Assembly: GCA_965645245.1 (NCBI GenBank)
Contig: OZ287081.1
Span: forward strand, 806,001 to 870,000
Length of the DNA stretch: 64,000 bases
Direction: 5' to 3'
Source of the DNA: Massalongia carnosa
Lineage: Eukaryota
Both the position numbers and the translations under genes were made by a program. This document shows, piece by piece, positions 6,316 to 49,180 of the stretch. How positions within the stretch are numbered: position 1 is the first letter of the stretch; every line of letters begins with the position of its first letter. The notes beneath the pieces were generated by a model. That model was not told where the DNA came from and searched no databases. It saw only the letters and a list, made by a program, of their open reading frames with translations.

Positions 6316-6804
6316 CACCAAAATCCGAAAAACCTTTACCTTTCAGCTTCGCATGCCACCAAAATTGCTAGTAATTGCAAGCCAACTGATGAAGTCGGTT
6401 CGGAATAATCTGAACATTTATTGACCTTAAATATAACCCAATGGCTGCATCAAAAGAACTGGAATTGACCTTTGTATGTACGTTTAAACCTCATCTTTTC
6501 ACTCCCACTTTCCAGCTGTCTGACAGCAGCAGACTGTCCTAATAACTTTCCCTTGACCAATCGATGTCCTCTAATCAACGAGGTCTTCCAGTTTGAGCTT
6601 CGAAAAAGCGATACTGTTGATCAAGAAGGCGTTGCTTGTGTTGGATCGGAGGGAATTTTTAGGATAGGTCCTGAAGTCCCATCAACATCATTTGACAGAT
6701 AAACTCAGGGCAAATGAACTTGTGAAAGGACTATTTATACGTACAGAGACTTTTTATTGGCTAGGAGGAGGAGGATCATGCGTACGAGGCGAGTTTCTAG
6801 TTCT

Positions 6805-9226: not shown

Positions 9227-9287
9227 GGGTGCTTACTAACTAGCGTGTTGCAAATGGGAGTGTGTTGCAAATGGGGGTGAATACGAG
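9227..9287 (-). repeat. Right terminal inverted repeat of the transposon
   Basis: Reverse complement of 6255-6315 with one substitution (GGGAG versus GGGGG). Confidence 0.95.
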
Positions 9288-9355
9288 TACATACGACAAC
9301 CCATTTCCTCCACCAAAGAAAGACACACTCCCATTCCCCCGAAATTTCAATAGCC

Positions 9356-11564: not shown

Positions 11565-12675
11565 TCATCTCCCCACTCTAACCCCACCGCCTTTCCCCTC
11601 CCTCTGCATAAAGCTCTGCCGAAAGCTGTCCTCGGCGCCTCTGGCCCAACGCGGATCGGCCGGCGCCTGATGCGCCAGACTCCAGTCTCGTATGCGGTTG
11701 AAGACGCGGCAGGTATGGGTGATCTCGAGATGGGGAAGGGGAATGTCGCGCGGGGCCATCCAACGCCAGTAGACGGTGGCGATGTCACCGTGGCACATGA
11801 CGGATTGGCGGAGGGCGTCGATACAGTGGTCTGGTGGGAAATTAGCGTGGTGGGTGAGACAGGGATGCAATTGTGTTTTGAGTTGTGGGAAGAGAGGGGG
11901 GGGGCAAATGAAAACGTGGAGTTGGATTCGTCGTCGACGCACCGAAATGTTTCGCATCTGTACTTGTATAATTTCTTCCTCCCCTTCCGCGCGGAGAGCC
12001 GTCGTCCAACCAGTAGTCCTCGAAAAAATCCCAGTAGCGTTCGGGGAAGAATGCCTTACGAATGGCGTTCAGGCAGTGCAATTGGTGGAACACGTCGAGT
12101 TCGACGACGTACTGATCTTCGGTCCCGGGGATGAGTTCGGTGGCGTTGGGAAGTTGGCGGGCGGCGGAGTAGGGGATTTGGGAGATGCCGACTTGAATTG
12201 GATAGGTTTGATGAGCAGCTGATAGGTGAGGGGTGGAGGGACTCACACTGGAAGAGATCCTCCCATAATGCATCGGTTTCGTCGGTGGGGATCCCTGCGT
12301 TGGGGGACTCGTCTGGTTGCCCCATATATGGACCTTTGGTTTTGAAATTCTCATCAAAGACGCGGGTTTCGTATTCAATGACGTCCTGGGCGGGAGCTAC
12401 GGGTTTGGGATGTGAGATAAAGTGGGCCTGCGCTTCGGGCTTGGATGAATACTCATACAATATATTCCCTGGCTTGGATCTGTGCATGCATGCGGACGGG
12501 TGTAGAGAGTGAGAACGGCAACTATCAATGCAGAGATGACAGTATAGAGGAATAACAAGTGAGCCATTGCTTGAAGATCTCGTCGACGAACACTGGATGT
12601 GTGCTGGCTGGGCGTGGGAAGCAGAAGCTCTTCGGGGTCCTCCACCGTCCCGACGTCTTTTTCGTCCAGATCCAT
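11565..12675 (-). CDS. UstYa-like / DUF3328 oxidase (exons 12675-12459, 12396-12247, 12191-11943, 11830-11565)
   Basis: N-terminal TM helix, YSPAQDVIEYE, and two HxxHC motifs: LDVFHQLHCLNAIRK, and KHFDHCIDALRQSVMCHGD (formed across an intron). C-terminal HTCRVFNRIRDW. Confidence 0.92.
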
Positions 12676-29517: not shown

Positions 29518-31008
29518 TGGACGTGCAAGCTCACGCTTACGACTCGGTGCGAAGCTGGATTTCCCAACGGCGAAAAGCGCCGCCGGATCCTGGCCATCTC
29601 AAGGATACCGGCTTTTTTATCAGGGGAGACCTTGGAAGGGGCGGAAACCGCCATCTATTAACGTCACATCATCTCTTGGTTGTTTCGTGTTGGTTTGTTT
29701 GGTTGTGTGCATTCGATTCTATTGTATTCCAGATACCTGGATCAGGCGCCTATTGCAAATTTTAGATTTTGGAGTGTGTTTTATCGTTACAAGGTCTAGG
29801 AGGAAGTAGCAGGTAGGGTACTCGGTATGTTTTGTTAGGTATAGCAGCTTTGGAGGCACAAAGGCTTGATGCCTTGAGTGAGAAGCACCGGGCAGGGTGC
29901 TGTTCATGTTCTTTCCGTGCAGTGTATTTCTGGGGGAGAGGAGGTATATCACATATCTCAATTGATCACATCTGGTTTCGGCTCGGTAGGTGCTTTGTAC
30001 TCTATATTGCTATTATGTACGTAACCACTCCATACTCAGTTGGCAAGTGTAGGTAGAGTCTCGATGACTCACAGGTTGTTATACGAGTACTTATTTATCT
30101 ACTCTGTACCTATAAATAAGGAAAACAAACCGGAGTCGGAAGCAGGTTAATCCAGCCTGGCCTGCGCAACCCTAAGCGCCACCATTTCGGCATCCTCTCA
30201 CATGACACCGTGACTGTATCGCGTCTGAGTTGGTCTGATTGGCGATCAGCGATGCAGGGGCCTAGCAGAGTCAATTTCTTGCGTCACCCACTCATCGTGT
30301 TTCCACTAGAAACCCCAACTTCAGCGGCTAAGCTGCAAAGTGGTAGCAACCTGTTCGAGATCTCCAGCCTCTAGCCAATCACAATGCTTCTGCTCATCAT
30401 TGATGAGAGAGGCTCTGGGCGCCTTTGGCAAAAGCACCCACAGGCGAAGAAGCCAAAACAACCTCATTGGAAGGTCGCTGATTTGTTAATAATGCCGAGC
30501 CCGCGGAACTGCGAGTCATGTTGGATTCAGTGGATTCGAGGGAGATAAAGGAATTTGCCCATGAGTGGCTAACGAACTCGACGCTGTGTTTGGGTGCCTG
30601 GCTGCTTGAATTTGTCTCATCCAGCTTGAAGCTGATCGATGTCATTGTTTGGGACCTACCCTCCTGCATTTCATACTTGGATTTTTGCTGACAATCTTCG
30701 ATCCATCCTATTGTTGTGTTCTCGTCAATATAAACGTTGCTGCATCAGACAATAGGATCTCGTTGACATTTCATCAATAGCCGCCAACTCGTTTATGACA
30801 ATAGGAGTGACAATAGGAGTGTTTCCAAGCCAGCAATAAACGTGCTTCATCCAAACTAAACTTGTTCACGAGTATCTAGCTTCACTCCATAGAAAATAAC
30901 CATCCTCATGGACATTTTGAAAGTGAGCTAGCTCTGAAGACTCATAGGTCTGCTATCGAAACTGCTAATGACGATGAACTAGGAGTTACTCCAAATACTT
31001 TAATAGAT

Positions 31009-34000
31009 ATGACTTCAAAAGTCGAACCAGTGGAGAAGGCTCGACCTCATATATTCCCTTTATCCCAGCCTAATCCTCCTATGCCTTTCTCATCGCCTAT
31101 GGGTGAAGAAATACTTCCCCCCACTTCACCAAATCTTCTGCAAAGCCCGATACGAAGTCGACGGAAGAACATCAGAGGTGAAACAGGGCAGGAAAACACT
31201 CCGCCGCGGAATCGCAGGTTCTCGGTCCAAAAGCCTCCAAAGCGGGATTCTGCGTGGAAGGAAGAAAAGGGACAAAATAAATCTCGATGGCCTGGATTAA
31301 ACGTCGTCACCAATTTCTCGAAACCTCCGATCCTTGCTCACCGAGCTGCCGAAGCTGATCTGAGAAATCATGTGCGGAGAAAAGAGCCCAAGCCGTCAAA
31401 TCCTCGGCTGGAATCCGTAACATTATCTAAGACGAAGGCACTTGAAGACTTGAAGACGCATAAGCGCAACAGAAGCTCAGGAGAGCAAATCATGAAGTCA
31501 GAAGGGGAACTGAAGTTTCGTGTGGAACGCGACAAGGCGAGGGAGAAAGACTTGCCTGCCGGACTGGGATTGGAGCCGTTCGTGGATTCTCTTGACTCGA
31601 GTTCTCATCTGTTCGTGGATGGTAAAAGTCGAGTGCATAGCCTGAGACGTTCCTCTACCAAAATTACCGAATTATCCCCATCCGATGCGCCAATTATGAT
31701 TGGGATTTCGATACCTTCAGCGAAGCTTGCGGAGCATTCGATAAGCCCAGATGCTGGGCCTGTTGGCTTAAGCGCTCATCGATACCCCTCCGAGCGGGAC
31801 GCTCCGGGAACGCCGACCATTATCGTGACCCCCGCAAAAGATGGAGAGCCCTGGTCGAGCGATTCATACCAAGTTCGGCGGGCTGCAGTGTCAAGTATCT
31901 ATTCGCAAGCATTCCAGCACGGTCGGGGCGTGGCTCAACCACGGGATATCCCCCCATTACCTGTGCCTTCGCAAACGTCCTTTCCATCTAAATACAATCC
32001 TCCGATAAATCCATTTGATGATGAGACTGGCAACGTATCACCTTCAAGGATAGTGTCATCTTGCACTGTTTTCGACGAAGATGAAATTCGAGGCAGACCT
32101 GATTCCGGGGAGTCTCAGCTGAGAATTCTCAAAAGAACAAGCACGGATACAATAGCAACACGACATCGGTCTGAAGGATGGTGGAATCACATACTATCCC
32201 CCTTTGCTACACGGGCAAATACGATGATGCTCAAAGTCGGTACGTCGGAAGCAGGTAGCCCGGTACCTGCATTACCGACTCCTACGACAGGAGGATTACT
32301 CCACCGTGGCCTTGTCGTGAAAGAGGCCAACCGAGACTCTCCCTCTCCAATGTCAGATCCTGAAGAGAGGGTGAATCACCATTCCAGCATCTGGACTGAT
32401 ATCAGCAAACTGGAAGTCGAGGGCCGAGATATTCACCGTGCCTATAAACAAATCTCTAGTCCGCGCACACCTGGGTCAGATCACACGGGAGAGGTAGGAA
32501 AAGTAAGTGCCTTGAATACTCCCCTACCTTTCGAGGGGTTTGGAGCAGCCGCAGAATATTATAATGCTTGCTGGCATGATCAAAATAGCCCAACTCCTTA
32601 TTTCAAGTGTCAGAACCATTCCTGCGGGCCATCAACCACCGATCAACGCATCATCCTTGAGGCTGAGGATGATGGGGACAGCTTTAAAGGGATAGTAGAA
32701 GATCCGGCTGCAAAACGTGATCTCTCAGAGCCCGAGCAAAATGCCGAAGCGCATGGGTTCCACCAGGCACCTGCAAATCGATTCTCTGCTGCTTTTAGTC
32801 AGGCAGCTCAATCAAGACCAAAGACAAGGCCTTTGAGTGACGTGACTGATATTGAAGATCTTGACGCTACTCCAGAAGTCCACGAAGCTCACATGGCGCC
32901 TATTGTTCGCGTAGGTGCGCCAATTCCCGCTGCTCAACCACCTGCATCAGATGCTGCCCCCCGGGCTCAGTTGCCAGATGCTACGATAGTAAACCCACCG
33001 AAGGCAGAGGAGATTTCACCTTCACAAATCTTATCGAAGCAGCTCCCAGCATACTCGCCTTCTGGCTCGCAGAAACCGCCAAAACGATCCGTTGCCGTAA
33101 TGCATCCAGCAGAGCGCTCATTGACCCCGGAGCAACCGAACGCTGAAATCTCTTCACTCTTCAAGCCACCGGTAGAAGACGGCCCCCAGCAGGAGAAGGT
33201 ACCTGTGGTCGATGCTACCCGCGAGGACCAAACACAACGTCCGCAAAACACCTATATTATTAACCATTATTATGATGACTCCAACGGAAGGGTGCAACGC
33301 GAAGAGGTTGCCTTGGCAGACTTCGAACCCCCACCACGAGCCGAGCGCTCCACGAAAGGCATTTCTCGTACGAAACGAGAGAAGGATAACTATCATCACC
33401 GAGAGCAGAAGCCAAGAAAGGGCTTAAGATATGGCAATTGCTTCAAGCGGGAGAAACCAATGACCAAGAAGAAGAAAGGATTGCTTCTCGGTGTCGCGAT
33501 CAGTCTACTCATTCTAATCATTCTCATCCTCGCTCTTACCATGACTTTGACCCGCAAAGGAGATCAGATGCTTGTTCAGACGCAGTGGCTCAACATCACG
33601 GGATTTCCTCCCATACCAACTGGCATCTCGACTATCATCCAGCCAGATGCGGTACAAGAGAGCTCTGCATGCGTGCAACCTGCGACTGTCTGGAGCTGTG
33701 CAGTGCCAAAGGAAGAGCAGCAATCGGTAGCTCCAAACGATCCAGACCAACCCAATTTCCGGGTGGAGATCAGATTTCGCAACGGCACGTCTGCAAACGG
33801 TACTGCATCTAGCGCTACGAGATTAATCAAGAGGTCTCTGACGCCGAACAACCCCGCTTCTGCTGGCAATTTTGTTCGCCGTCACATTATACAAATCCGA
33901 GACTCCTTCAGCAATTCTCTTTTCTCTCCTTCTCCTTCCCCGCCGAGCGAGGAAGATCAAGTCTTCCTTGGCAACACCACCGACAAAAACGCACTTCCTT

Positions 34001-34803
34001 TTGATGGCGAAACCACTCCCTTCTTCATGAGCTTCCTCTCCTCTTCTAAAATACCCTCAGCTCAACGACTAATGAAGCGCGTTGACAAGAACACCTCGGA
34101 TCCTTTCCCAGACCTCACCAAAGCCATTCCTCCCCCTGAAACCAATCCTGACGGCACCGCCGCTTCCGCCAATCTCCTTCCGTTTCCCGCAGCTCAACCT
34201 CTGCGCCTCTATGACCGTGGTCTCACGACCGAACACTATGGATTTTACACCTACTACGACCGCTCCATTTTTCTAAAATCCACCGCTCTCCTTAACGATT
34301 CGTCTCCCTCCGTCGGTGATATTCCAGACGATCAAGAAGGTGGTGCGCTGGAGGCTGCTGCTGCTGTTCGCTGTACGTGGGCGCAAACTCGCTTTCTAGT
34401 ACAGATTTGGACCAACCAGGGCGCTGCCGCCCTTTTAGGTAACTCGACAGCCGCCAAGTTCAAGCAGCAGCAGCAGTCGAAGAATCTCACCGAGTCTTCC
34501 GCCAACGACTTCTCTCGTCCGGGATCCTTCCCGTACCCAGTCACCATTACGCTCGATAGGCACGGGGGCGATGTCAGTAAGAAACTTATTTATTGCTACG
34601 GACTCGACAATCGGGAACATATCCTTCCCGAGCGGAAGAAGGTGCAGCTTGAGGATCGCGGGGCAGGCGGGGCCTTGGTCAATCCGGCGCAAGGCCCATT
34701 TGCAACGACGAAAGTTGGGAAGAATGATGGGGGACCGGGAGGAGTAGATGGGGGGAGTGGGGGTTGCGGATGTCGGTGGAAGAATTTTGAAGGGGGCGTG
34801 TAG
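31009..34803 (+). CDS. Large type II single-pass membrane protein, 1264 aa, function unknown
   Basis: Intronless ORF with a long disordered N-terminus, KKKK followed by the TM helix LLLGVAISLLILIILILAL, and a Cys- and N-sequon-containing C-terminal domain ending GGCGCRWKNF. Confidence 0.82.
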   Translation: MTSKVEPVEKARPHIFPLSQPNPPMPFSSPMGEEILPPTSPNLLQSPIRSRRKNIRGETGQENTPPRNRRFSVQKPPKRDSAWKEEKGQNKSRWPGLNVVTNFSKPPILAHRAAEADLRNHVRRKEPKPSNPRLESVTLSKTKALEDLKTHKRNRSSGEQIMKSEGELKFRVERDKAREKDLPAGLGLEPFVDSLDSSSHLFVDGKSRVHSLRRSSTKITELSPSDAPIMIGISIPSAKLAEHSISPDAGPVGLSAHRYPSERDAPGTPTIIVTPAKDGEPWSSDSYQVRRAAVSSIYSQAFQHGRGVAQPRDIPPLPVPSQTSFPSKYNPPINPFDDETGNVSPSRIVSSCTVFDEDEIRGRPDSGESQLRILKRTSTDTIATRHRSEGWWNHILSPFATRANTMMLKVGTSEAGSPVPALPTPTTGGLLHRGLVVKEANRDSPSPMSDPEERVNHHSSIWTDISKLEVEGRDIHRAYKQISSPRTPGSDHTGEVGKVSALNTPLPFEGFGAAAEYYNACWHDQNSPTPYFKCQNHSCGPSTTDQRIILEAEDDGDSFKGIVEDPAAKRDLSEPEQNAEAHGFHQAPANRFSAAFSQAAQSRPKTRPLSDVTDIEDLDATPEVHEAHMAPIVRVGAPIPAAQPPASDAAPRAQLPDATIVNPPKAEEISPSQILSKQLPAYSPSGSQKPPKRSVAVMHPAERSLTPEQPNAEISSLFKPPVEDGPQQEKVPVVDATREDQTQRPQNTYIINHYYDDSNGRVQREEVALADFEPPPRAERSTKGISRTKREKDNYHHREQKPRKGLRYGNCFKREKPMTKKKKGLLLGVAISLLILIILILALTMTLTRKGDQMLVQTQWLNITGFPPIPTGISTIIQPDAVQESSACVQPATVWSCAVPKEEQQSVAPNDPDQPNFRVEIRFRNGTSANGTASSATRLIKRSLTPNNPASAGNFVRRHIIQIRDSFSNSLFSPSPSPPSEEDQVFLGNTTDKNALPFDGETTPFFMSFLSSSKIPSAQRLMKRVDKNTSDPFPDLTKAIPPPETNPDGTAASANLLPFPAAQPLRLYDRGLTTEHYGFYTYYDRSIFLKSTALLNDSSPSVGDIPDDQEGGALEAAAAVRCTWAQTRFLVQIWTNQGAAALLGNSTAAKFKQQQQSKNLTESSANDFSRPGSFPYPVTITLDRHGGDVSKKLIYCYGLDNREHILPERKKVQLEDRGAGGALVNPAQGPFATTKVGKNDGGPGGVDGGSGGCGCRWKNFEGGV

Positions 34804-36766
34804 AGCTGGGTTGGTTCTGGTTTGGGGGATATCTTTTGAGCGGATTGGACGAATTGGAAACGATCGAGGTGCATTGGATTCGATTGGCCTTTTTAGGTCC
34901 GCAAGAGTCGGCTCACGGCAAAGTATGCAATTGATGATTAGCGTGACGTGGCGATTTGATTTCTCTCGGCCTCGAGAGCTCCTTGAGGGTCTCTTTCTTT
35001 CCTAAAAGAACCATAAAAGCAAACTTGGGATGACTTTAATATATATACACCTACATAGATGGACCACTTACGAAAGTAGAAAAGTAAATAAAACAAAACA
35101 AAACAAAACAAGAGCCGTTCACCCCTCCCTCTAACTACACATTTCCCACACACATATTCCCCTTTTTTGTCTTTCCTTTTCTTTCCCCCCTCTTCTCCTT
35201 CCCGATCTCCCCTAAATTCGTCGCTTCTTGGGTGTTTTCGTCGTCGTCGTCGTTGCTTTCTTTTCTTCCTTCTCTCCTCCCTTCCCCTGTTATGTATTTA
35301 TGTGTGTATTTATTTAGTTGGTTGGCTGGTTGCTTGCTTGCTTTCATGTTGCTTTGCTTTTCCTTGTCTTTGTTTTCGCTTCCGGTTTCTTGTTCTTTGA
35401 TTAGTTGATTGATTGATTGCTTGGTTTCGTTGGTTGACCTTTTTATCCCTTCTCTTTTGTCGTTGATTGGGGGGGTTTTTTTCGTTGTGTATCGAGTGCT
35501 ATTGTTATTATTTTCATTATCATTATTGTTATTGCTGTTGCTGTTACAGTTACTGTCATTGCTATCGATGGGGGTTGGAGAGGGGATCGTGTCGCATCTT
35601 GGGAAAATGAAAAATGAAAAACTTTTATGGACGGAATTTTGGCCAAGTTGGCTTTTAAAGCCTCGAGCAGAGAACGGTGCTGCTGCTGCTGTTGAAGAAG
35701 CTGATGATCATAATATCGAGTTTAGGAATGATGATGCTACCGAAAATCTTCAAGAGAAAGTTGCTTTTTTCGGCCTTCTTGTCTTCTGATGAATCTTGTG
35801 CCATCATGCGAGCATGCTTGCTTACTGCCAGCTTTTTACAAGTGAGAAAGTTCAACGGAAATATGCTATTCTCCAACAGCTTTATAAATCTTTCGGCGAG
35901 CTCATCTTTTTCTAGATATCAAGGCATAAATTATTAAATTGCCGATATTACCCATCCAAAGATGCTGAATAGAAGAGAAAAGACAGAAGGCACAGGTAGG
36001 TGTATCATCCGACTGATACGTCATAAGTATTCTTTCGGTTCTCAAGTGATGATGTTGGAAGCCCGGCCGGTAGGAAGGGTGAGTGATGTCTTGCTCCTGA
36101 GCCCTGGGGTTGCTGGAGTAGAGGGCTATGCTTTGAGAGCGGAAACAATTGTATTATGGCGTTCATAGTCTGTTACTAAGGTAGAAGAAACTAGGTAAAT
36201 CATACCTAGGTAGCCGCAACATCGACGAGGCAACCGCCTGGCCTTTTCTTAACGTTTTTTTGTTGGGCAGCTTGGAACGGTTGATACTGGTAGTCTAACA
36301 TCTTCCTTCCTTTCTCCCCTCTTTTTGAAGTTAGCATTGATAAGTACAACAATGGTTAGTATGATGATTGGCATACAAATACTCGGCCAGCCTGTTGGTA
36401 TGTACTTACTAATGTTGAACTACTGCAGACAAGGTAACAACGTTGCTCCTATCATAGATCATCGAAATATATTTGGAGGCTGCACTGAAATGGTGGCTGT
36501 CGGACAAAAGTTTGCAGCCTGCAAGGCTACAGCACTATTGTGCCCTGGCTTCCAAGCACTGCAGGGCTCAGCATGCAAGCAAGCGACTGACATCGTTCTA
36601 CGTGTCCAAGCCCACCTTATCTGGCATGCACAACTATTCCACTCGTCAGAATGTTATATCTACCGAGAATTCCCAAGTCAGTCGGTTAAATTCCGAACGT
36701 AAGGTACAATAAGCACCAGCCTCTTCCTCCAAATCGGCAAAAAAAGTCTCAAAAAGTGAACCAGCA

Positions 36767-37309
36767 ATGGCGCCTTTGCCTACGGTGCAAGGCTCCGATC
36801 AACCGGTGTTGGTACGGCAGATTTTGTCGAAACGGTATCTAGTCAACAAGAATGATCTGCAGGTATTCCTCGAGACCAAATTCCCAGGGAGGAGGGATTT
36901 CGAGATCAGCGTCTGTGAATCCCACTCTTGCTTTGAATTAGAGAGTTTTATCTTTTTGCCTCCACTGAAAGCTGACCAACATGTCTAGACCAAGAACGGG
37001 AGATGGATTTTCATGGTCCCCAAAAAGCTTTCCGCTGCTGATATTAGGTAGATGCTCCTCTGGTTTTCGATATTTATCATAGGTACTCGCTTTCATGCTA
37101 GCAAAAATATGCTGACTCTATGGATGAACTGCAGGTGTCTAATCGCAGAAATTCAAGCAAGAACCGATCGTGAAAGAGCCGACCGTGCTACGAGCCTAAT
37201 TGGCTTGGCGGGCGTTGCCACTGTTGCGAGGGTTGGCGATGATTCACACTATGAGGCTGATTTGGCAAGGCTGGAACGACGGGGGTGGGTGGACGAAAAG
37301 CTGCAGTGA
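36767..37309 (+). CDS. Small hypothetical protein, 125 aa (exons 36767-36910, 36989-37047, 37135-37309)
   Basis: Two GT-AG introns with GCTGAC branch sites give an open frame: ..RQILSKRYLVNKNDLQVFLETKFPGRRDFEISTKNGRWIFMVPKKLSAADIR.. Confidence 0.65.
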
Positions 37310-37573
37310 AAGGACCCGCAAGTATTGGTGGTCTGCACAAGAAAGACATCCCAAGTGTAATTGGTAAACGGTAGGATTGTGCATGAACACTGCGTGATTG
37401 GTGTTGGAAGCTGCAGGCGTTCAGGAACGCCATTTATCCAGATAAGGAGCCTGGCCAAGGGCTTTCTTAGTCAGAATCAGCCACAAAGTGATCAACCTTG
37501 CATTGAATAGCCTTCCATAATCACCTTTCTTATATCAGGATTCGTGGAAAGACCCCACAGTTGAAAGAGTATC

Positions 37574-39397
37574 ATGATCGTTATGCAAACTTGTTTCTCC
37601 AAATTAAACAGAATTTTGAGTATGAGCATCAACCACAACACTGCTATTCCATTGTCGCCGCTAGCCCCTATTCACTCAGAGCCTCCAGCATACGCTGGTT
37701 GGCGCACGTATCCTGTCAGCGTTCACAGCTTCAATCCTCTAACTACCCCTGCCCAAACGTATTGCGATCGGTTACACAAACTAAGCTCAACTTTATTTTC
37801 TGATGCTATCAAGTTGTATATTATTGATATTGATAGTAGTGGTGGTGAGTTTGCGTATTGACCAGCTTTGGGATTATTCATCTTAGACAAACTGACAGTC
37901 TAAACCCAGGAGCGCCGAAATGCAAAACAAGGCTTTGCGAACGGAATGCAGAAGTAGAATCGATATTGCAGCAGAAAAATGAAGAGCTTCCAAGGGTTAG
38001 GATAATGTGAGCTACGAAAGGCGTGTCCCTGAGACACACTAACTCATGATTGTACCAAGATCATTACACTCGCCAAACACTGCTCTTCCGTTACGAATCA
38101 CCGAATCGCTGATGCGGAAAATTCTTATGCGATATCGAGTTAACCCAGGATTTCTTCCGGTTCTTTTCTCGTTTGGGGATGAACCGCACCTCGCCGAAAC
38201 GGGTGCCAGCAACGTTGCGAGCTCTAAACTTGCCGATTCGAACAGTAAGGTTTTTGGACCTTCGAGTTTCATGCCAGTATTGAAAAAATTCAGGTGTCTT
38301 TTATCAAACTCGGTATGCCGAAGAAAACCAAAGGTCAACCGAAAATCCTTGGTCTATCCGGCAAATGGGCGTTTACCATTATCACGCGTTGGATAAGAAA
38401 TTCGATCTCTTTATACTGATTCATCCTCTGGACGGTAGCCCGGTTGAGAGAAAGCTGCAAGAGCTTGCCAGATCTGATCTGCATGCCACGGCTCTGCTAA
38501 GCACCATTTACGATGACCCATGGAAGCTACATGTTTTACCTTTTGCCTCCTATCTGGGAAATTGGCGCTGGTATTTCAGGTATTTGGGGGCAGATTTTCA
38601 AGAAAGGGTTTTAAAGTTCTCTTCGCTACCCAAAGACTCTTAGCTAATGGATCCAAAGAACGATGAAGCCTTAACTCTTGACCTCAAAACAACAGCTGCT
38701 GTTAGCTTGAGTTTTGACAAAGTGCAGAGTCTTCGGGATCTACATGATGTAGTCCTCTCTCTGAGCGCCTTCTGTGGGAGTAGTCTGAACGTCTTAAAGA
38801 TGCTGGATAACATCCAGGAGGCGGATCTCCAGGGTGAGTATTCATTGAGCTCCTACTATGTGCAACTGTGTGAATACGAGGAAAGTCTCTCGGTTCTCGG
38901 TAATAGAATACGCGGCGCTATCGAGCTTGTAAGCGTAAAACTCTCCAGCCACTCTCCAGCAATCACCTAATTTTGCTACAGCTTGCATATGCGTTGGACT
39001 TGCAGAACCAGGAGACAGCTGCAAGAATCAACGATCGAATTTCCGAACTCACAGAAGAAACAACTGACCATAGTGCCACTGTCACATGGATTACAATTCT
39101 AACGCTGATTTATCTTCCAGCCAGTTTTGTTTCGGTGAGTACAGCACGCTCAAAGCCTGATCTTTGGTCTCATGATACCAATAGGCTTTATACGGCATGA
39201 ACTTCTTCCTCTTCAATCCGCAGACAAAGAAGATAGCAATCGCAAATGACTTCTGGATATACGTAGCGACATGGCTACCGCTGACACTATTGACATTCGT
39301 AGGTTATAGAATGATGGTCCTCCGGCACAGACCGCGTAAAGAGGAGGGATGGCACTGGCTGAAGCTAAATAAGTTCCGAAACTTAAGTCCTCCGTGA
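37574..39397 (+). CDS. Divergent CorA-like (2-TM-GMN) membrane protein, about 7 exons; start at 37574 or 37622
   Basis: Spliced translation includes PLRITESLMRKIL..PGFLPVLFSFG, PWSIRQMGVYH and a long helical stalk. It ends ITILTLIYLPASFVS-ALYGMNFF..FWIYVATWLPLTLLT, with GMN at 39194-39202. Confidence 0.82.
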
Positions 39398-39522
39398 TTA
39401 AAAGTCTGGAGTTGATATAGCGAATCGAATGGAAACTGGCGTTAGATTTATCTTGCCGCAGTCTTTCTGGTTCTACCATATCTCCTCTATACATGTCGAA
39501 AGTTGTCAATGATTTATAAGGA

Positions 39523-42517
39523 TTATCTATAGTTGATGATCTTTCCTTTGATTGTACAGATTATAATCCGTAATGAGTTCTCCCTGAAAACAGATACTAC
39601 TTTTGCTTGGTCGTCGATATTGCCACTCTGATTCGATACCCTAGAGCGTGGCCCAATGCAACGGGTACCATCTGGCCGTGTAGTCAGGGGATACTCGCTG
39701 ACTTTATGTCCCCATTGGAGCTTTTTATTTTCAATACAAATTAGGGTAGAATCTTGAGAAACACAAGCAGTCCTTACGCTTTCTGTCCTGTAATTCTGGC
39801 GATGCCGTATAGTTTGGGTTGGTGTATTGGAGGGCTGCACGATGAATGTCCCCCCATGAGGATCACGTAGGACACAAGCAGGTTCGGATCCATATGGCCA
39901 CATCGTGAATTTCGTTGAAGCTGTGGGTAACTTGGGTATTTGAGTATTTTGCGTTATAGATCTTCATACGTTAACTTACTTTTTCATAGTATCCCTTCCC
40001 TCCTGAAGATGGCGGTAATTCCTTTACGTCCCAAAAATAGGATTGATCGGCAGATCTGCCAATAGCCCATACGCAAAGCCATTGACCGCTCGCACCAAAG
40101 GCAGCTTGGTTGATCGTGTTAGATGCATCGATATCCAATGGATACAGTTTCTCATCCCTGCTTGGTAATTTCTTTGAGTATATTCCCGAAGTACAAGGAG
40201 TTGAGACTCATACTTACAGATGGTGCGAGAGTATAATCTGTTTGCCACACACATAGGCAACGACTCCCAGACTAGACACAATCACGTTGGACACGTGTAA
40301 GCCATGATCAAACGACGGTATCCTGATGATTCGTGCGGTATTTCGGAGATCATATATTCCAATCTATATCGCGTTAATCATGGAAGATATCCAGTTGGGT
40401 TTCATTCACAGGACTTGAGATGCTAGGTGGCTTACCGACTTCTGAGCCGAAGATGGGGGCAAGCCGTACACTGCCAAGAACGGAAAGGCGAGGCAGATCT
40501 TTGTCCACGTGCTTTCCGATGGCAGCGGAACAGGAATGGGCCCCTGGTTGTTGGAAATGGGATGCACATCAACACGGTCTGTATAGAGCAAGGCAATGTA
40601 CTCTCCATTTGCTGAGAGGTCCACACTCCTTATTCTCCCCTGGAAAGGTAATGTTAGCCCCATTGAAGGAATAGGGCTTGAAGCACTCGAATGAGGAGTG
40701 CCTGATGCGACCGAAGGTATAGAGAAAATCGAACCCGTGCTGGCAGAATTTCTGCGTTCATCGTCGGGGTTCGATAGAGCCTCGATCGAAGGATGAATGA
40801 TACGGCCGTTAGAAGCTGGCGGCGGTAATACTACGATGTCGTTGACCGGGCTATTACTACCGGGCTCAGACGCAATATTATATAATAGCGTATGCACTTT
40901 TTCCATGAAGCCTCTGGCCCCTAATCGATGGGCCGGATCGATAACCAGGACCTCTCGGAGCATTTCACCACACTGTCGAACCCACGGAAATGTTGGATTG
41001 GACGAAAGCGAATCAAGCCAAGCAAGAATCGTTCCTTTGAGCTCGGTATTAGAACTGTCCCTGATGGTCGGTATCGATAAACCGTCCTTAGTCTTGTAGA
41101 AAAAGTCATCTCCTCCATGAAATCTTTCGTCTCGAAACATTTTAAGTGCATGCTTGCCTTCAAGAACCGTTCCTTCTAGCGCGAATTTCAACACATCGGC
41201 GAGAATACAGGCGAAAGACCAAATGTCGCACTTACGACCATCAACCCTAGGATTATCGATCTCTGGAGGTTGGTACGGTCCATGACCTCGATCGATGCGG
41301 TCTTGACGGGCATTGGATGTAAGTCTGTGCCCAACATCGCGGATTGACCGGATATTCGACGCCAGTCGGTCTGTGCGCTGGTCCAAAATAGATATTCCAA
41401 AATCCGATATCATCCATTTCCCAACGGGCGACCCTGAACCCCGCGTCACTAGAATATTTTCCGGTTTGAGATCCATGTGTGCGCAATAAATGTCTAGTGA
41501 TCCCTGTATGTGAAGGTCTTCGTGGAGCCACACGAGCGCAGACGCAATATTTAACAGCTCCTTGAACAACGCGCCTTGTAATATTGAAGGCGTCAAGCTC
41601 GGAAACTCCCTATCGAAATCATAAACCATGACTTCCTCTCGAGTGTAATCTTGCGCCTCGAAGCCGCAGCGTAGAAAAACTTCGAGGTCACGAAGTTCGG
41701 CTAAAGGAAGTAGAATCATGAAATCATCCCCATGGACGATTGACGCTATATGTAGCATTATGGACCTTTTCCCCTGGCCAATATCTGCTTTCAGATATTC
41801 AAGGTTTCGAAGCTCCATGTGGAAGTCTTCCCTGCTTCTGTCATTCCTATACTTCTTACACGCCACAGCTTTGGCCTGCGAGTGACATCAATACATTGTC
41901 TGAGCATCTAATAGCAATAATATACCTACCTCACTGTTTTTTGTTCGATTATCCGTATGAAACAAATACTCTGGAGCAATGATGACTTTGGAGACAACCC
42001 CAAAACCGCCACTTCCAATTTCTAGGGAATCTTCGATGAAAGGAAGACGTTCTTTGGATCTTAGCTGCTGAATATACCTCGTATCGTGCTCTTCAATGAT
42101 GACTGGGATGAAAGCGTACTGCATTTGTGAAAACAAATGTGCAGAGCGACGGAGAAATCCCAATTGGGTTTCGGATAATGGCAAGCTTGCATCATTTCGA
42201 TCTTGGTCCGGCCGCATGAAAAAATATGGTCTAAATAGCAATTCTAGATCCGTCCAATCTATGCAGATCAGGATCGACAGGACTTTGAGGTACTCGGCTC
42301 GTATCTTCTGTCGTTCATCCTCCCACCAGCGTTGGCTCGGAAAGATATCTCTAAGATTATAGAACTCCCAAACAGTCCGTAGTTCGCGGTCGCATATAAA
42401 GATTTTAGATGAATCATCCTGTCGATGCATCCTTTGAAGTATGGCCATTTGGATTTGCGCAAGCGGATCAAGGTTTTCGACTCCATGAGACGGGTTTCGT
42501 AAACCGTCGGGTGGCAT
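39523..42517 (-). CDS. Ser/Thr protein kinase with an N-terminal helical extension and a C-terminal beta-rich (WD40-like) region, about 5 exons
   Basis: GSGGFGVV, AVACK, HMDLKPENIL, ISDFG, YQPPE and DIWSFACI motifs. Downstream exons read SVDLSANGEYIALL, IGIYDL and AAFGASGQWLCVW..YFWDV. Confidence 0.85.
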
Positions 42518-43422
42518 ACTCAATAGTTAGCGGAAGGGATTGTAGGTAGCCTGTGCCAAATTCCCAACGGTTCTCTAGCATGTCACCAAGAATCCCTCTT
42601 CGCCTGAATTGACAGTGATGTATACAGAGATAGGCGGCTACGTACACCATCCCACTTCATCAGGCTGAAGGTGGCTTACGGTCAAGCAGCCCAGTTCTGA
42701 CCCTTGGAGTTCGCTTATACTCGCGGAAAGACGAAAAATGATGACTTCGATTACCACAAGCTTTGTACATGGTATAGCCTAATTTGCTCGTCTTCTTTGC
42801 ATAGTAAAATGTCATTCGGGCGAGTGAAAATCACAGGGAAACTTTTGGCGATTTGCTTTAGGGGTTTGGAGTACAGGGTGCCTATCATAACGTCGGTATA
42901 CTTATCTACCAACAACCGAATCTAACTAAATCTGTTGATGCTGCCTTTGAGGTTTTATCAGCCTAGAGGCGTTGTCAAGTAAAATGGAAGGATTGAGGAT
43001 TCGTCACCGATCACACCACTCATTGCCTGTCTTTCGGTTCTACAGTAACCAGATGTGAAAGCGCCATCTAATATTTTTTCTTCGCATTTGGTGCACCTGG
43101 TGGTTGCACAATCAAGGGTGCCTGAGGGTTTGCAAGGCATAGGCTGTGCTGTCGAGAGACCTATCACTTTCAAGCCTTAGCTCCCCCTTACCCTTCGTTT
43201 TCCTTGTCTAGGACAGTCGGAGCATGGAGAGGCTTCATGTTTGTATATCAAACGTTGTATTGCTGTGAGGCTGTGATATTCTCGACATAACGATGAGTCT
43301 CCGGTGTTTTCTTTACAAGACTTTGTTGTCTACATTCCTCTCACTCAACTTCCAGTGAAACAACCCTCATACATTCCAACTATTTCTAAATGCTACATAA
43401 TTATTCAAAGTAAACCTTTTCA

Positions 43423-45569
43423 ATGGCAGAACTAGAGGCTGAGCTGAGGTACGCACTGTTTCTCGATTCTGATAAACAAGCAAGTTAATAGATGTTTAGA
43501 CCGGAGCTATACGGATGGCAGATATTTGTCTGGTTAGCCATGCTCCCTTGGACCAATTTACTCATTTCCCCACAGACGATTACGGTCAGCGCGGTAATCG
43601 GTATCACTATATTCTACAGCGATGGGGAGGCCCTCGAAGTTGCTGGGCCTGGAGGAACCTTGTTGGCTTTCGTTATAATTGGCATAATTTCGATCTGCGT
43701 CCTCGAAGGAGTCAGTGAGATGGTACAAATGTTTCCTGCTCCCAATGCTATAATGGAGTACATCAGAGCCTTTGTGGATCCAGATTTGGCCTGGGTAATG
43801 GGAGTAGCCTACTGGTAAGCAAACTCCAGAGTTTAAAAGACTTATACTTAAGATCTCGTTCCTAAAGGTACACTTTTTCCTCTACATTTGCTATCCTCAT
43901 TATTGCAGCCGCAGAATTTTCAAGTTTCTGGCATCTAGCACAGGTTTGGCAAACAATAGGGTTCTATGGTTTTGCCCCGGTGGTGATGCTGTTCATTAAC
44001 TTTGCAGGAGTAAAGGTAAGCTACAGCTTTTCCGAAAGACGGCGAAATTGCTCCTAAGGATAGATTCGAGTATTTTGGTTACGTCGAGACGGTCGGCGGA
44101 ATCCTCAAGATCTTCATGGTCATTGGCGGTGGCATATACATGTATATTATTCATGGGAAAGGTCTGTCTTCAACGCAGTTTATTTTTCCGACTTACTGAC
44201 CACTACAGAGGAGACCGGTTCCACCTGTAAATCTTACATACAACCAGACCAGATTTATAATATGGTTTATGAACGTTGTTGACCATGTGCGACAGACATT
44301 AACAAGGGTTTTACCAATAACCCACGCTTTGCAAAAAATAAAAAAATTGCCGGATGGTAAGAGAACTCTAAACGTGCCTTAAAGTATTGGTTGACAGTCA
44401 TATTTTAGCTACGTGATTCCAATCGTGGCCTATGGTTTTATTTCATTGGAATCTATTGCAGTGACTGCATTTGAAGCACGGGATCTAAACTCTTTACGTA
44501 AATCTTCTCAACTCGTAGCATACTTCATATTTGGGTTGTATGTATTCATTCTTGTTGGCGAGCTGATGAACGTGGATTGGACAAACCGTGCGCTTCCCCA
44601 AATCTATGGAGGTATCGATGCGGATTATACTGGAGTACGCACCGAACCTTCGCGTTCTCAGGCAATTGTGATTATAGCTGCCCTTCGGGCGGGTTCACCG
44701 AAGATTTCTGGTCTCTTAAACGGTTGCATGATTTTCTCCGCTCTCAGCGCTTCTAACACCGCGTTATATATTGCATCGCGGAGCTTGTACGGCATGACTC
44801 GCACAATCAGTCCATGGAGATGGTTTGCGTGGCTAAGAGAACTGGGCACTGTCTGGCACAGGACTGGCGTACCCATGTGGGCTTTACTAGTCTCCGCTCT
44901 AGCTTTCGTATGGTTGCCCTTTCTAGAGTTACAAGGAGGACATAATATAGCAACTGTATGCTACCTTGTATATTTGATTTATCATGCCGCTAATTTTGCG
45001 ATAGTGGATTGAGATTATGAGCATATCATCTAGTGTGAGCTGTTTGCTTGTTTGGGCTTCATTGTGTTTAGCATTTATCCGCTACCATGCGTGGTCAGTC
45101 AATCGACGCCCAGTTGTATGTTGCTTGAGCTGACAATATTTGGGCGGTTAAAGGCTCAAGAAGCACAGGGATGCAATAGCGGTATCGTATCCTGAACATA
45201 ATCGATGGGCCAAGACTAGTCAAGCATCCACATTCCTGGCAGGGTTGCAACCGGCTCTTGCATGGCTCGGCTTCATCGCTTGCCTCGTGATAGTCTTCGT
45301 GTTCACGACGGCAACTTGGTGGAGTACCCGTCCCATGTTTACCAAGATTGCAACCGCGTACGGATCTGTAAGTACCACCCTTGTTCTTGAGGGTACCAGA
45401 GTCCTGATGAAAACGATGACCATAACAGCCTGTCGTTCTCACAGTATTCTTTATCCTGCTTAAGCTTATCACAAGAAGACTTCCGGTCAGGCTTGATGAT
45501 GACTCTGCGGCTCTATTCAGCACCCTTGAACATTTGAGGTATCTTAAACCTGAACGGCGGACTACATAA
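43423..45569 (+). CDS. Divergent APC-superfamily (yeast amino acid transporter-like) permease, multi-exon
   Basis: ITVSAVIGITIF..GEALEVAGPGGTLLAF..SEM..FP..FVDPDLAWVMGVAYWY, FGYVETVGGILK, SALSASNTALYIASRSLYGM, GVPMWALLVS and LQPALAW. Confidence 0.85.
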
Positions 45570-46139
45570 AATACGACGTAGCAGGGCATTCCAGATTGCA
45601 GGGTTCTAATGATTTCAGTTCTACGGGGTGGCAGCCCTCATTTCTCCCCCCCAGGTTCTTCGGCTCTATGTGCTAATAATCTGTTGTTATTCTGGTCTGT
45701 ATATAAATGTAGATCAGCACAACCAATTTCCACATCCCTTAGCATCCTGATCATGCAGGACACATGCATCATAGCATATTCATTTACTTACCCCGATATA
45801 ACTTGCTCGCCTTTAAGGTTAAGTATCTTTAGTTGATTCATATATATCGATTTTTCTATCTTCTTCTTGTTTCTAGTCTATCTTCCATGTTGCTTTTAGG
45901 GACCGCCGTCTTCAAGTTTGTGTTCACGTCGATCCTACTTATATACCGAGAAAAAAATTCTGCAGGATTTATTCTTTGCTAACGGCGGTTTTGTTAGACT
46001 GTTCAAAAAGCCGAGGAACCCCGAAAGGGCACAACCTTGGAAAATGGAAATCATGAGTCTGAAGGCAGATATCAGGAATTGTTCATTCTAGTCTCTAGTG
46101 GGATCAGACTCCTCTGGCCTATTATGTCCTTGGTCAAAG

Positions 46140-46203
46140 CGTTACCATTACATCTAGGGAATTGATCGTTACCATTACATCTAGGGAATTGATCGTTACC
46201 ATT
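46140..46203 (+). repeat. Perfect 27-bp tandem duplication (about 2.4 copies)
   Basis: CGTTACCATTACATCTAGGGAATTGAT twice, then CGTTACCATT. Confidence 0.9.
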
Positions 46204-47687
46204 CGATGGCTCAGCGGCCACACGATTCTTTGGAACTGAGGATTTTGAGCCCAGCCAAGTTTGCAGTTTCCAGAGAGATCGTCCGAAGATTGTACTGTAA
46301 GCTATCATCTTCAAGTTTGGTTTTCCTGAAAGAAGAGAGCATGGGCGAGTGGTCAGGATGGGGTAGAAAGATACTGTCAAGCGTGTGATAGTGAACCCAG
46401 TATCTAAATCACTCGAGAATTATGCATCCAATGGAGTTCATGCCTTTTCTTTCAGATCTTTCTAATATCTCAGCCTTGATTGCGTCAATTCTCTATTTTC
46501 CAAGATTGGTCACAATCCTGCGATGGGCCCTTCCAGAGACGATGATATAATGCCGCATAGATTATTTTAACATCACCAAAAAAAGTGCTAAAATAAAGCC
46601 GATTTCATCGCCTCCGTGATGAGATACAATGACGAGGAATGCACGACTATGGAATAGACTGCGACCGTTTTCGCTTTATCCGCACTTGCCGAAGCAGAAA
46701 AAACGGCTGCGGCCCTGGCTGGAATAATCAGTTATCGAGTTAAAAAGCAAGTTGATCATAAAAGCCCGTCCTACGCGTGCCAATGAATCTCAATTGATCA
46801 ACGACAGTCTTGTAAAATGCCATATTTAAACGCCGTCATCGACAACGGGCTCCGAATACGTTCACCCATGCTGACCTGATCGTCCGCGTAATTTCCACCT
46901 ACGGGAAGATGGTTTGAGGATATTGGCCTCTATGGGGCGACTATGTGCTCCTTATCAAATACGACCCCAAAAGGCGAGCACTGACAAGTTTCATAGATCA
47001 ACATCCAATTCGCCCGTTGGAGTAAGTGCCTACCATTCGTCCGCCCACTTCCACCTTCCGGAACCCGTTGCCTCGGAGCATCGGCTCTACGCCCAAGTCA
47101 CAATCTTTGCAGACGACGCTTGAACACGCACGCAGCCCTTTAAAATTGGGCTACATAACTACATTGGTTGTAGCGGACCGGAGTTGGGGGGCCAGAACTG
47201 CTCATCTTTCCCGCACAAGACCTAAACCGAGGTATTGCCAATAAGATGGAGCACGTTTAGGTAGTATTCTGTAGTTGCTTTGCTTCCAAAGTTAAAGGAC
47301 GTTGCTTTGTAAAGAAGAATATGATGAATAATACCTCGGTAAGTACCTTAGGCTGGTATCTGCAGTACGGCGGTATCAACTACAAACGACAGGCATCTTT
47401 CAGAGAACCTCTACTTTATACATCGCTCGAACCTTCATGAAGAATAATTGGCTGGCTTCAAGAGTCACATGATATCAATAACCGACCTAAATTGAATCAT
47501 AACTACAACACTTGGTAGATCCGTTTGGGATCATCCATGCAATATAGAACTCACAGCAAGCTTAATTGCTGATGAACTGTTCCTTGTCCTTCGAAGTACT
47601 CCATAACGTTAGGCGAAGTTGTTTGTCTTATTTACAGAGTAGTCATCTTCATGTCGAATCGCCTGCGGTTGTTTAAACAAATCTATC

Positions 47688-49180
47688 ATGCCTTATACAT
47701 TTCTGCTTCCTACTACCTCTGATATCTCCTACTCCAAGATTTTCCACAGCACTACTCATCCGTCCTTGCCCTCGAGTGCAACAACTCATCGACTTGTCTT
47801 GCGAAACGTATTGAAGAAGCATAAACGTCTTCCAGGTCATTCGCAATCATCCGATCTTGCTAATATCGTGTCCGCCCTTGAAGCGTATATCCCATACCTG
47901 TTCGCTCTCGACACTGGCCTTAGTGGCAAAGAGGTCAATAGAGAGGAGATAGATATAGCCCTAGTAGCAGAAGTCGAAGTTGAATGGCGCACATCCCTCG
48001 CGGCCACGATTCCGGGGCGCGAAGCCCGACGTGTTAAGGGAAAAGGGCTAGACTACGAGATATGTTTTACACTCACCACGCTGGCTTATGTCTCCACACT
48101 ACTTGCACAATCCCAGCTTCGTGGATTGTACACCTCCACAACCCCCACATGGGAGCAGCGTGCTGGAATAATCACAAAAGCAACCAAATATCTTTTGCAA
48201 GCTGGTTCCATTCATACTTATCTCAAAATGCGCATCAATGAAACAAATGTGCCTTCGGGGGCTCTTGAGACGAGTCCCTCGGCGCAAGATGCGCTTGCTG
48301 AACTAGCCTTGGCGGAAGCTACGCTTCTTGCGGTCCTCAAGGATGATCCATACCCTGCTGCGGTGGCGCAAGATCGTAACAAGAATGACAGTGAATGGAA
48401 ATTCAAAGCTCCGGAACTCCCAAAAGTCCGTGCGCATCTTTTCGCAAGGCTATGCTTCGCTGCAGCCGAACATGCCGGAAAAGCCGAGGCGATGCTTAAC
48501 AGCTCAGATAGTGATAAAATAATCCGAGTTGATGATGCGCTGCTAAAGTATATTGGCGACCTGAGGAGAACGTCCAAGGCGAAGGCTTGCAGGCTTTTTG
48601 GGATCGATGCCGAGCTAGAGGGCGAAACTGGCCAGGCAATCTCATGGCTTCTTGCAGGTAAGAAGGAGCTTGGATATTTTGGCACGCTTGAAGGGGGATC
48701 CAAATTGAAAGGGCTGGTAAAGCTCAAACGAGATTGGACGGAACATAGAGAGGATAAAAAAATCGAAAAAGGCGGCGAATGGGGCAGTGATGCTGGACGG
48801 TTGGAGGAAGCAAGGATTGTAGAGATGCTCGATAAGAAATGGAATAAAATGAATGACACGGTGAGATTTCAGAACTTCAGGATCGTAAAGCGTCGTCCTG
48901 ATCGCACTGGCAGATCAACACCCAAATCATCCCTCCATCTGAAATGATGCTTGCTAAAGCACCTGCTGGGCGAGACATTCATACGATAAATTCTTTCGTA
49001 CCTGGGAGCCTTGATGAGGACATTTTGTCCCACATGCGGGCCCCGCCGGACGAAGAAGACGCTAACAAATCAGCGGGCGGTGATGACAGTAGCAGCGAAG
49101 GTGAACGCGATGGGAAAAGCGCTCTCCCCAGGTCGTTTCCCGGAAGAGCTGTCATAAGCCCGTCGGGAGAATTCTACTAA
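47688..49180 (+). CDS. palC: pH-response regulator PalC, Bro1 domain (intron 48861-48912)
   Basis: MPYTFLLPTTS..THPSLP..YIPYLFAL..LLAVLKDDPY..KAPELPKVRAHLFARLC..GEWGSDAGRLEEARIV..KMNDTINTQ, ending FY. Confidence 0.92.

Follow-up and report, generated by a model that had tools for sequence, protein, structure and literature searches.

Conserved linkage of genes for a small protein, a CorA-like membrane protein, a Ser/Thr kinase and a permease in Massalongia carnosa and other Pezizomycotina

Gene content of the locus

The DNA stretch analysed here originates from Massalongia carnosa (assembly GCA_965645245.1, contig OZ287081.1, positions 806,001 to 870,000 of the forward strand). It comprises 64,000 nt and is referred to as the window, with positions counted from its first nucleotide. 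At 36767-45569 the window carries a cluster of four genes. Its core is a small gene followed by a gene for a CorA-like membrane protein on the same strand, facing a Ser/Thr kinase gene on the opposite strand. A dedicated permease gene is divergent from one end of this core. The comparison to other genomes shows that selection keeps these genes together, and we infer that their products act together.

Gene models were built using full-length homologues as guides and lead to the following features.

36767-37309, plus strand: small gene; exons 36767-36910 and 36989-37047 and a third exon ending at the stop at 37309.
37622-39397, plus strand: CorA-like gene; seven exons (37622-37844, 37910-38006, 38060-38244, 38294-38607, 38659-38928, 38982-39134 and 39185-39397), 484 amino acids, no internal stop; model guided by the full-length homologues P0123, P0126 and P0127.
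39398-39522: convergent spacer of 125 bp from the CorA-like stop to the kinase stop, according to the gene models.
42517-39523, minus strand: Ser/Thr kinase gene; five exons (42517-41930, 41875-40436, 40363-40218, 40160-39980 and 39930-39523), 920 amino acids, no internal stop.
42518-43491: divergent spacer of 974 bp from the kinase start codon to the permease start codon, according to the gene models.
43492-45569, plus strand: divergent gene for an amino-acid permease of the APC superfamily; at least eight exons, stop at 45567-45569.

None of the resolved models of the cluster contains an internal stop. A preliminary description of the locus had listed four intact, intron-rich genes in the order small (+), CorA-like (+), kinase (-) and permease (+), with 125 bp between the CorA-like and kinase stops and a divergent region of about 900 bp between kinase and permease. 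The models agree with this arrangement and place the two divergent start codons 974 bp apart. Two regions are ambiguous. The third exon of the small gene has seven possible in-frame AG acceptors, resulting in a product of 80-136 amino acids. In the permease gene the junctions within 44110-44400 allow for 51 open-frame two-intron solutions.

The cluster is flanked by about 2.0 kb on each side (34801-36766, partly of low complexity with a GC content of 0.40, and 45570-47642). An earlier impression of gene-poor spacers is overstated. Beyond these two flanks the window is ordinarily gene-dense, with open reading frames (ORFs) for RhoGAP-LIM, UBC, GT34, BRO1-like, Rpc25, heterokaryon incompatibility (HET) and NUFIP1 proteins. 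Rfam does not return any RNA gene at gathering score in 34000-48000, and no tRNA is found in the window. The DNA is fungal and is contained in sequencing runs labelled as lichen metagenome; the nine runs found do not include an RNA run. The nearest named relatives of the cluster proteins belong to lichen-forming Lecanoromycetes.

Conservation of the gene linkage

Metagenome contigs from JGI were scanned with an alignment of the kinase family. The scan resulted in 84 pattern matches, 21 of which encode relatives of the kinase. These are located in 19 loci (given L numbers in the following), 18 of them distinct as L015 equals L016 at 99.98%. At least 2.6 kb beyond the kinase match are available in eight of the 19. 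A convergent CorA-like gene is located 1.3-1.9 kb 3' of the kinase in six of these eight, or five of seven distinct ones (L008, L009, L014, L015, L016 and L018). A permease homologue lies within seven of the 19 loci (L001, L009, L014, L015, L016, L017 and L018).

The small gene is recognised in all four distinct loci that have DNA upstream of the CorA-like gene, namely L009, L014, L016 (identical to L015) and L018. It is consistently found upstream of the CorA-like gene and on the same strand, within an interval of 1.7-2.1 kb that separates this gene from the permease. Its conserved core is interrupted by an intron, the position of which is shared between these loci and the window.

The permease gene takes three different positions. 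In the window and in L001 it is located at the kinase end in head-to-head orientation, in L009, L014, L016 and L018 at the end of the small gene, and in L017 it forms an upstream tandem. Since the permease is found at either end, the set has survived rearrangement.

Each long locus has its own set of neighbouring genes (Cid1-PAP/GTPase and Gln synthetase; epimerase/DUF2196 and Bax inhibitor; GH81/methyltransferase/GNAT/He_PIG; PheRS/GRDP). A tblastx comparison of the loci with the window does not reveal anything shared beyond the cluster genes. Kinase and CorA-like gene, small gene and permease are found together again in unrelated surroundings, with pairwise protein identities of 27-50%.

Named genomes were compared for the four species in which relatives of both the kinase and the CorA-like protein are listed. 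In Loekoesia sp. the CorA-like gene (Q9225_004934) and the kinase gene (Q9225_004935) have consecutive locus tags. The same applies to Psora crenata (kinase Q9163_001702, CorA-like Q9163_001703). In Dothidotthia symphoricarpi the CorA-like gene and the kinase gene each lie on a scaffold of 1,742,224 bases. The fourth species, Bacidia gigantensis, is considered further below. Additional kinase and CorA-like proteins can be paired by the equal size of their contigs (P0123 with P0081, 7708; their cluster members, 23295; P0125 with P0075, 12663), which points to a common contig in each case but does not prove it. Tractable species are covered as well: relatives of the CorA-like protein and the kinase occur in Aspergillus section Nigri, and CorA-like relatives in Colletotrichum and Venturia.

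A co-inherited module had been proposed in the preliminary description. Its recurrence in metagenome loci and named genomes supports this view, and we regard a conserved and selected linkage of the cluster genes as highly probable.

One stretch in the metagenome loci is peculiar in composition. Directly 3' of the kinase in L002 (~6000-13656) the DNA is AT-rich for 8 kb (GC 28-30%) and holds no ORF of at least 110 amino acids. This stretch, at the expected site of the CorA-like gene, looks degraded by repeat-induced point mutation.

Descent and selection

A careful maximum-likelihood tree was calculated from 39 CorA-like sequences. It separates groups of Lecanoromycetes, Eurotiomycetes, Sordariomycetes and Pleosporales with support values of at least 95/89; the support of a Venturia group is also high. 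Kinase-linked CorA-like members occur to either side of the midpoint root. The groupings (Psora, Letrouitia), (Loekoesia, Bacidia), (Dothidotthia, L008) and (L016, L018, L014) reappear in a quick tree that was calculated from 39 kinases. Congruent phylogenies had been suggested as a check of the module, and the CorA-like and kinase trees indeed mirror each other as well as the class taxonomy. Moreover, across five loci the three larger proteins have a similar ranking of pairwise identities.

The copy number is apparently one per sampled genome. As the trees follow class taxonomy and the genes are apparently single-copy, we assume old vertical descent rather than a patchy island. A patchy distribution, which had also been put forward for testing, is not in line with the trees; these do not have a patchy or expanded pattern.

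Selection was evaluated by the raw ratio of non-synonymous to synonymous differences (pN/pS) between L016 and L018. The values range from 0.12 to 0.45 over all genes, indicating purifying selection in all four. In particular, they amount to ~0.3 for the kinase, 0.13-0.33 for the CorA-like gene, 0.12 for exon 1 of the permease, and 0.24 and 0.26 for exons 1 and 2 of the small gene. Pieces that are non-coding or read in the wrong frame give 0.6-0.9.

The GC content at third codon positions of the four cluster genes matches that of neighbouring genes. Neither inverted repeats nor informative direct repeats are found in 33000-49000. A mobile island, such as transposon or Starship-type cargo, was considered and rejected: flanking repeats and deviant composition are missing, and the sole transposase ORF is 28 kb away.

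The CorA-like protein

Judged by its homologues, the CorA-like protein is a probable member of PF26616, a fungal group ("CorA-like transporter domain"). PF26616 is the precomputed Pfam assignment for all five homologues of the exons and for 43 of 44 homologues of P0123, while hmmscan on the window exons and on P0123 itself did not return it. The Pfam CorA family (PF01544) stays below its gathering score for P0123 (21.3 bits, cut-off 27) and gives no match for the window exons. It is listed by precomputed Pfam for about half of the CorA-like homologues. We take the protein, as a probable member of the PF26616 group, to be set apart from the housekeeping lines Alr1, Mnr2 and Mrs2.

The structure was evaluated using a model of the homologue P0123 (488 residues, predicted local distance difference test score 83), whose identity to the window protein amounts to 52-57% over the aligned exons. 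Foldseek aligns this model to CorA of T. maritima with an E-value of 1e-9 and a probability of 1.0 over ~410 columns. VIA Z values are 18.5 for TmCorA, 17.2 for MjCorA, 14.9-15.5 for ZntB and 11.1-12.1 for Mrs2. Compared to the cytosolic domain of E. coli CorA, the VIA Z value is 16.7 with a root-mean-square deviation of 4.5 over 253 residues. Two C-terminal membrane helices are predicted at 398-421 and 441-465, and the GMN motif ends the first of them. For the CorA-like protein, as represented by the modelled homologue P0123, the CorA fold is confirmed.

The protein thus resembles the CorA/ZntB/Mrs2 (2-TM-GMN) group in its cytosolic alpha/beta domain, its long stalk helix and its two C-terminal membrane helices. 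In contrast, the sequence identity is only 9-16%, the cytosolic domain carries invariant motifs specific to the family, and the gene is tied to a kinase.

GMN is present in the window and in L008, L009, L016 and L018. Of the 30 non-gap rows in the alignment of the CorA-like proteins, all have G and N, and 25 have M. We regard the protein as a putative divalent-cation channel of the CorA type.

The CorA fold also serves as an effector in prokaryotic defence, and the preliminary description had pointed to the CorA effectors of type III CRISPR systems. The likeness is restricted to the fold. PADLOC models of these CorA proteins match the membrane end only (last 80-100 residues, E-values 1.6e-4 to 8.8e-4), and the fungal locus is eukaryotic and has no CRISPR context. 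Hence the comparison does not carry over to the cluster.

Two further observations concern CorA-like proteins. In the CorA-like gene of L014 (5203-6844, minus strand) the pore motif reads GME instead of GMN, although this copy is linked and conserved in other respects. For AN6960 of Aspergillus nidulans, which represents a separate family, a table in PMC5371717 lists WD, ankyrin and CorA-like domains; a CorA-type membrane end is fused to repeat domains there.

The kinase

The kinase consists of four regions. A family-specific N-terminal domain of ~190 amino acids (N-domain) precedes the kinase domain. From there a Ser/Pro-rich linker leads to a C-terminal domain of ~330 amino acids, which is conserved. 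Pfam Pkinase matches the window protein with 39 bits (cut-off 31.7), and the closest solved relative reaches only an E-value of 1e-4. The window and all 19 loci (20/20 sequences) share the motifs H-x-D-x-K-x-x-N, DF(G/N) and (A/P)PE. The catalytic residues are invariant in 32 of 32 aligned proteins, and a Gly-rich loop as well as a Lys-containing strand are visible in the 920 amino acid model. Since the catalytic-loop, DFG and APE-type residues are kept throughout, the kinase is very probably active.

The N-domain is found in 340 representative clusters at E ≤ 1e-3. Among its 27 longest carriers a kinase domain follows the N-domain in 22, one of these having ankyrin repeats in addition, and a zinc finger is present in one of the 27. 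The NLR domains NACHT and NB-ARC do not occur in these 27 proteins. The N-domain has no match in the PDB at E ≤ 10, and its neighbours in the Atlas are all Ascomycota clusters. For the C-terminal domain, no Pfam match is obtained at E ≤ 5 in any of eight full-length relatives, and a profile of the last exon does not match any PDB sequence. Self-comparison of this domain using hhalign gives a weak internal repeat (E 0.02); the impression of a propeller-like repeat is unproven.

Within the PADLOC defence library, mad6 is the best model for 18 of 18 family kinases (54-91 bits, profile positions ~55-340), a comparison that has no ordinary-kinase control. In all 15 kinases of these 18 that have a Pfam score on record, the mad6 score exceeds that of Pfam Pkinase (39-64 bits). 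The model is part of MADS, described in 10.1101/2023.03.30.534895 as a bacterial methylation-linked anti-phage system of eight genes. The likeness of the family kinases to MADS ends with mad6, as none of the other MADS parts is present in the fungal cluster.

Contigs of four sequencing runs were compared to the window, which inform on presence and strain differences. In run X4, a second sample of the same species that is ~99.5% identical elsewhere, the depth is ~54 over 41015-46423 versus ~28 in the flanks, contig depth being a weak measure. The 5' half of the kinase gene is covered by short contigs that are 3-10% diverged compared to a background of 0.5%, including two in-frame deletions of 9 nt at 42209 and 42468. 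Both an identical and a diverged version of the kinase 5' half are present in run X4. The diverged version may represent another allele, a duplicated segment or a different genotype. At 46655/46656 two X4 contigs end. Their loose ends are mutual reverse complements and continue into at least 1 kb of unmatched sequence, which resembles an insertion bounded by inverted repeats that the window lacks.

The permease and the small protein

Pfam AA_permease matches two of the permease exons with 51.8 and 41.1 bits (cut-off 24.6). The best NCBIfam model is TIGR00913, which we take to represent the yeast amino-acid transporter (YAT) type; only exon fragments were scored, reaching 52-75 bits compared to a whole-protein cut-off of 578.7. 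The identity of the permeases between loci is 35-50%, except for the close relatives L016 and L018. In L015-L018 conservation of the N-terminus sets in at residue 3 of the first exon; the membrane core follows from about residue 25.

The preliminary description had stated that none of the genes looks like the canonical member of its family. The scores are in agreement with this: the CorA-like protein is below the Pfam CorA cut-off, the kinase is far from solved kinases, and the permease fragments yield only 52-54 bits on TIGR00913.

A divergent permease of this kind might be a sensor. In such a wiring, similar to that of Ssy1, a permease that no longer transports would report an external amino acid or a related compound to the kinase, which in turn would gate the CorA-like pore. 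Besides its low fragment scores and the 35-50% identity between loci, the permease is retained within the cluster in 7 of 19 loci at three different positions, which is consistent with such a dedicated role. The sensor Ssy1 has a long cytosolic N-terminal extension and has lost transport. The cluster permease has the APC-permease fold in common with Ssy1 but starts ~25 residues before the first conserved membrane segment. A long N-terminal extension is not seen in the window and four loci, where upstream exons were not searched for, and we thus assume that the permease is not a sensor of the Ssy1 type. Moreover, exon 1 of the permease is the most constrained piece of the locus (pN/pS 0.12), as expected for the core of a working transporter. 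Taken together a wiring like that of Ssy1 appears very unlikely.

The small protein is basic (isoelectric point 9.4-10.2), soluble and without a membrane segment over the whole range of 80-136 amino acids that results from the choice of acceptor. Relatives are not found in Pfam, PADLOC, the PDB or the Atlas. Profile matches in the PDB are at chance level (E ≥ 0.3), and the best Atlas score of 0.79 is uninformative. An amyloid-like or other short motif common to the small protein and the other three proteins was not found. Mimicry of the N-terminal helix pair of the CorA-like protein was also considered for the small protein and rejected (blastp-short E 2.0, hhalign probability 2.4%).

Relation to defence and cell death

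A kinase next to a pore-type membrane protein might also constitute a regulated module for cell death, defence or stress suicide. The kinase would be the sensor, with its C-terminal domain sensing, and would phosphorylate or gate the CorA-type pore such that the ion balance collapses, in analogy to RIPK3-MLKL or to conflict systems of prokaryotes that comprise a kinase and a membrane effector. The small protein would be an inhibitor or an adaptor, and the permease an entry route or a sensor. Such a module would fit the best match of 18/18 family kinases to the bacterial mad6 model, above Pkinase in the 15 of 18 that can be compared, although these scores lack a control with ordinary eukaryotic kinases. 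The diverged haplotype in run X4, which is confined to the kinase 5' half (3-10% versus 0.5% background), points in the same direction. Likewise, the table in PMC5371717 lists an A. nidulans protein joining WD, ankyrin and CorA-like domains, and PMC12881547 describes fungi as habitually encoding death pathways in small clusters. The effector role of the CorA fold in prokaryotic defence would fit as well, although the PADLOC CorA matches obtained here are weak (E 1e-4).

In general layout the locus resembles known fungal cell-death clusters. According to PMC12881547, these comprise two to four genes with a putative regulator and a membrane-acting protein, i.e. an NLR with a HeLo/HELL effector or a gasdermin with a protease. 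The cluster described here, in contrast, is inherited vertically and under purifying selection, and has no NLR, HeLo, gasdermin, protease or shared amyloid-like motif. The four genes, 144 cluster ORFs of the loci and the 27 N-domain proteins are all free of Pfam domains of the NACHT/NB-ARC, HET, HeLo/HELL, gasdermin and protease types. As the defining domains are absent, this is not a cluster of the NLR, HeLo or gasdermin type.

Another comparison is offered by RIPK3-MLKL, where a kinase is paired with a cation-conducting membrane protein (PMC12881547). However, the kinases and the pores of the two systems belong to unrelated families. In the fungal cluster kinase and pore are encoded by separate clustered genes together with a permease and a small protein. 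A death function of the fungal set is unsupported.

Further properties argue against a death module. The trees track class taxonomy with apparently one copy per sampled genome, and purifying selection acts on all four genes including the C-terminal part of the kinase. The N-domain is fused almost exclusively to kinases (22/27) and never to NACHT or NB-ARC. Finally, the GMN filter is intact, which points to a selective channel in working order. A role in defence or allorecognition, as the preliminary description had envisaged, is therefore not supported by the class-taxonomy trees, the purifying selection and the search for cell-death domains, and we consider a death module quite unlikely.

The same holds for a related idea, a fungal kinase-gated pore, to which we assign an equally low probability. 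Here a bacterial-type, mad6-like sensor kinase would read danger or stress via its C-terminal domain and switch a CorA-fold channel that is restrained by the small protein, whereupon divalent cations would flood or drain. If true, the cluster would be an ancient switch for cell death or dormancy in filamentous ascomycetes, made of parts unlike those of known eukaryotic death pathways.

A putative phosphorylation-controlled transport unit

The most economical reading of the cluster is a phosphorylation-controlled transport unit. An active Ser/Thr kinase would find its partners via its own N- and C-terminal docking domains and control membrane transport by phosphorylation. Its targets would be the putative CorA-type divalent-cation channel with intact GMN filter, the YAT-like permease, or both. 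The small, basic and soluble protein may be an accessory factor or a substrate of the kinase. Such a unit would serve ion or nutrient homeostasis or stress adaptation and have no role in an arms race.

Precedents for this kind of control exist in yeast. Npr1, Hal4/Hal5 and Ptk2 regulate permeases or ion transport at the plasma membrane by phosphorylation. These Ser/Thr kinases belong to other kinase families and are not known to be clustered with their targets. The cluster kinase differs from them by N- and C-terminal domains of its own and by its clustering with the putative targets. The parts of the cluster come from known superfamilies (CorA fold, protein kinase, and APC permease at Pfam level), and their combination matches no described system that we found. 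The preliminary description knew of no functional account of such a unit; full-text literature searches likewise did not find a paper describing this cluster. Apparent mentions of CorA in PMC12881547 and PMC12258605 turned out to be the word "coral", and these families are not mentioned in 10.1101/184242.

A number of points weigh against this reading. Control of channel or permease by the kinase, the accessory role of the small protein and the role in homeostasis are all derived from family membership. Moreover, the kinase domain scores higher on mad6 than on Pkinase, which fits a conflict role at least as well. The loci were ascertained via the kinase only, so that the data cover linkage as seen from the kinase side. 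Taxonomic labels are missing for the metagenome loci, and 11 of 36 branches are unresolved in the kinase tree, which derives from a quick search. In promoters, no 8-mer is shared by more than 4 of the 6-10 upstream regions, a frequency that does not exceed expectation. No CorA-like match is obtained in L002 (10 kb downstream) and L017 (10 kb, permease present) even at E ≤ 10. In Bacidia gigantensis the kinase gene (KY384_004696) and the CorA-like gene (KY384_004806) are located on one scaffold but 110 locus tags apart. As the kinase tree pairs Bacidia with Loekoesia, the Bacidia genes are orthologues that have truly been separated.

These cases bear on a further explanation, namely linkage without shared biochemistry. 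Overlapping transcripts or regulatory elements, or merely slow decay of synteny, could keep the genes adjacent while each acts in its own pathway. Short convergent spacers (125 bp) and divergent promoters are hard to separate undamaged. Bacidia, L002 and L017 show that the genes can exist apart, and a shared promoter word was not found. In contrast, the four genes persist although the flanks are unrelated everywhere, and the permease switched ends but stayed. Their joint occurrence across several classes far exceeds the surrounding synteny.

The Bacidia proteins P0131 and P0278 are located on unusually long branches (1.17 and 1.81). This may be due to a constraint that is relaxed upon separation of the genes, or to poor gene models, which could mimic the effect. 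Unlinked homologues in other genomes had been named as an outcome that would speak against the module. In most of the cases tested the genes are linked and the module stands, with Bacidia as the exception. We regard linkage without a common function as unlikely.

Taken together, we favour an ancient, vertically inherited and probably phosphorylation-controlled membrane-transport unit of the Pezizomycotina. With the mechanism included, our confidence in it is evenly balanced.

Other features of the window

Outside the cluster several features of the window were recorded.

6808-8655, minus strand: intact-looking Tc5/pogo DDE transposase ORF of 616 amino acids.
11845-12754, minus strand: two adjoining ORF pieces with matches to UstYa, a mycotoxin-biosynthesis protein.
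30880-34800, plus strand: uninterrupted ORF of 1307 amino acids directly upstream of the cluster, without a Pfam match at E ≤ 1e-4.
46140-46203: perfect tandem repeat of 27 nt with 2.4 copies; run X4 is one unit shorter.
57673-59274, minus strand: HET ORF of 534 amino acids (E 5e-29), 12 kb from the cluster and outside the conserved set.

Biological meaning of the cluster

Deeply conserved gene clusters of a non-metabolic kind are rare in fungi. The cluster described here ties a fungus-specific and probably active kinase to two membrane transport proteins and a small protein without known relative. It persists across several classes of Pezizomycotina amid changing surroundings. Moreover, it provides a testable hypothesis for three large families without assigned function, i.e. 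the CorA-like proteins of PF26616, the N-domain kinases with their 340 representative clusters, and the small protein. If it is true that the kinase gates a CorA-type channel, the eukaryotic members of this channel superfamily would turn out to be controlled in a way not described before.

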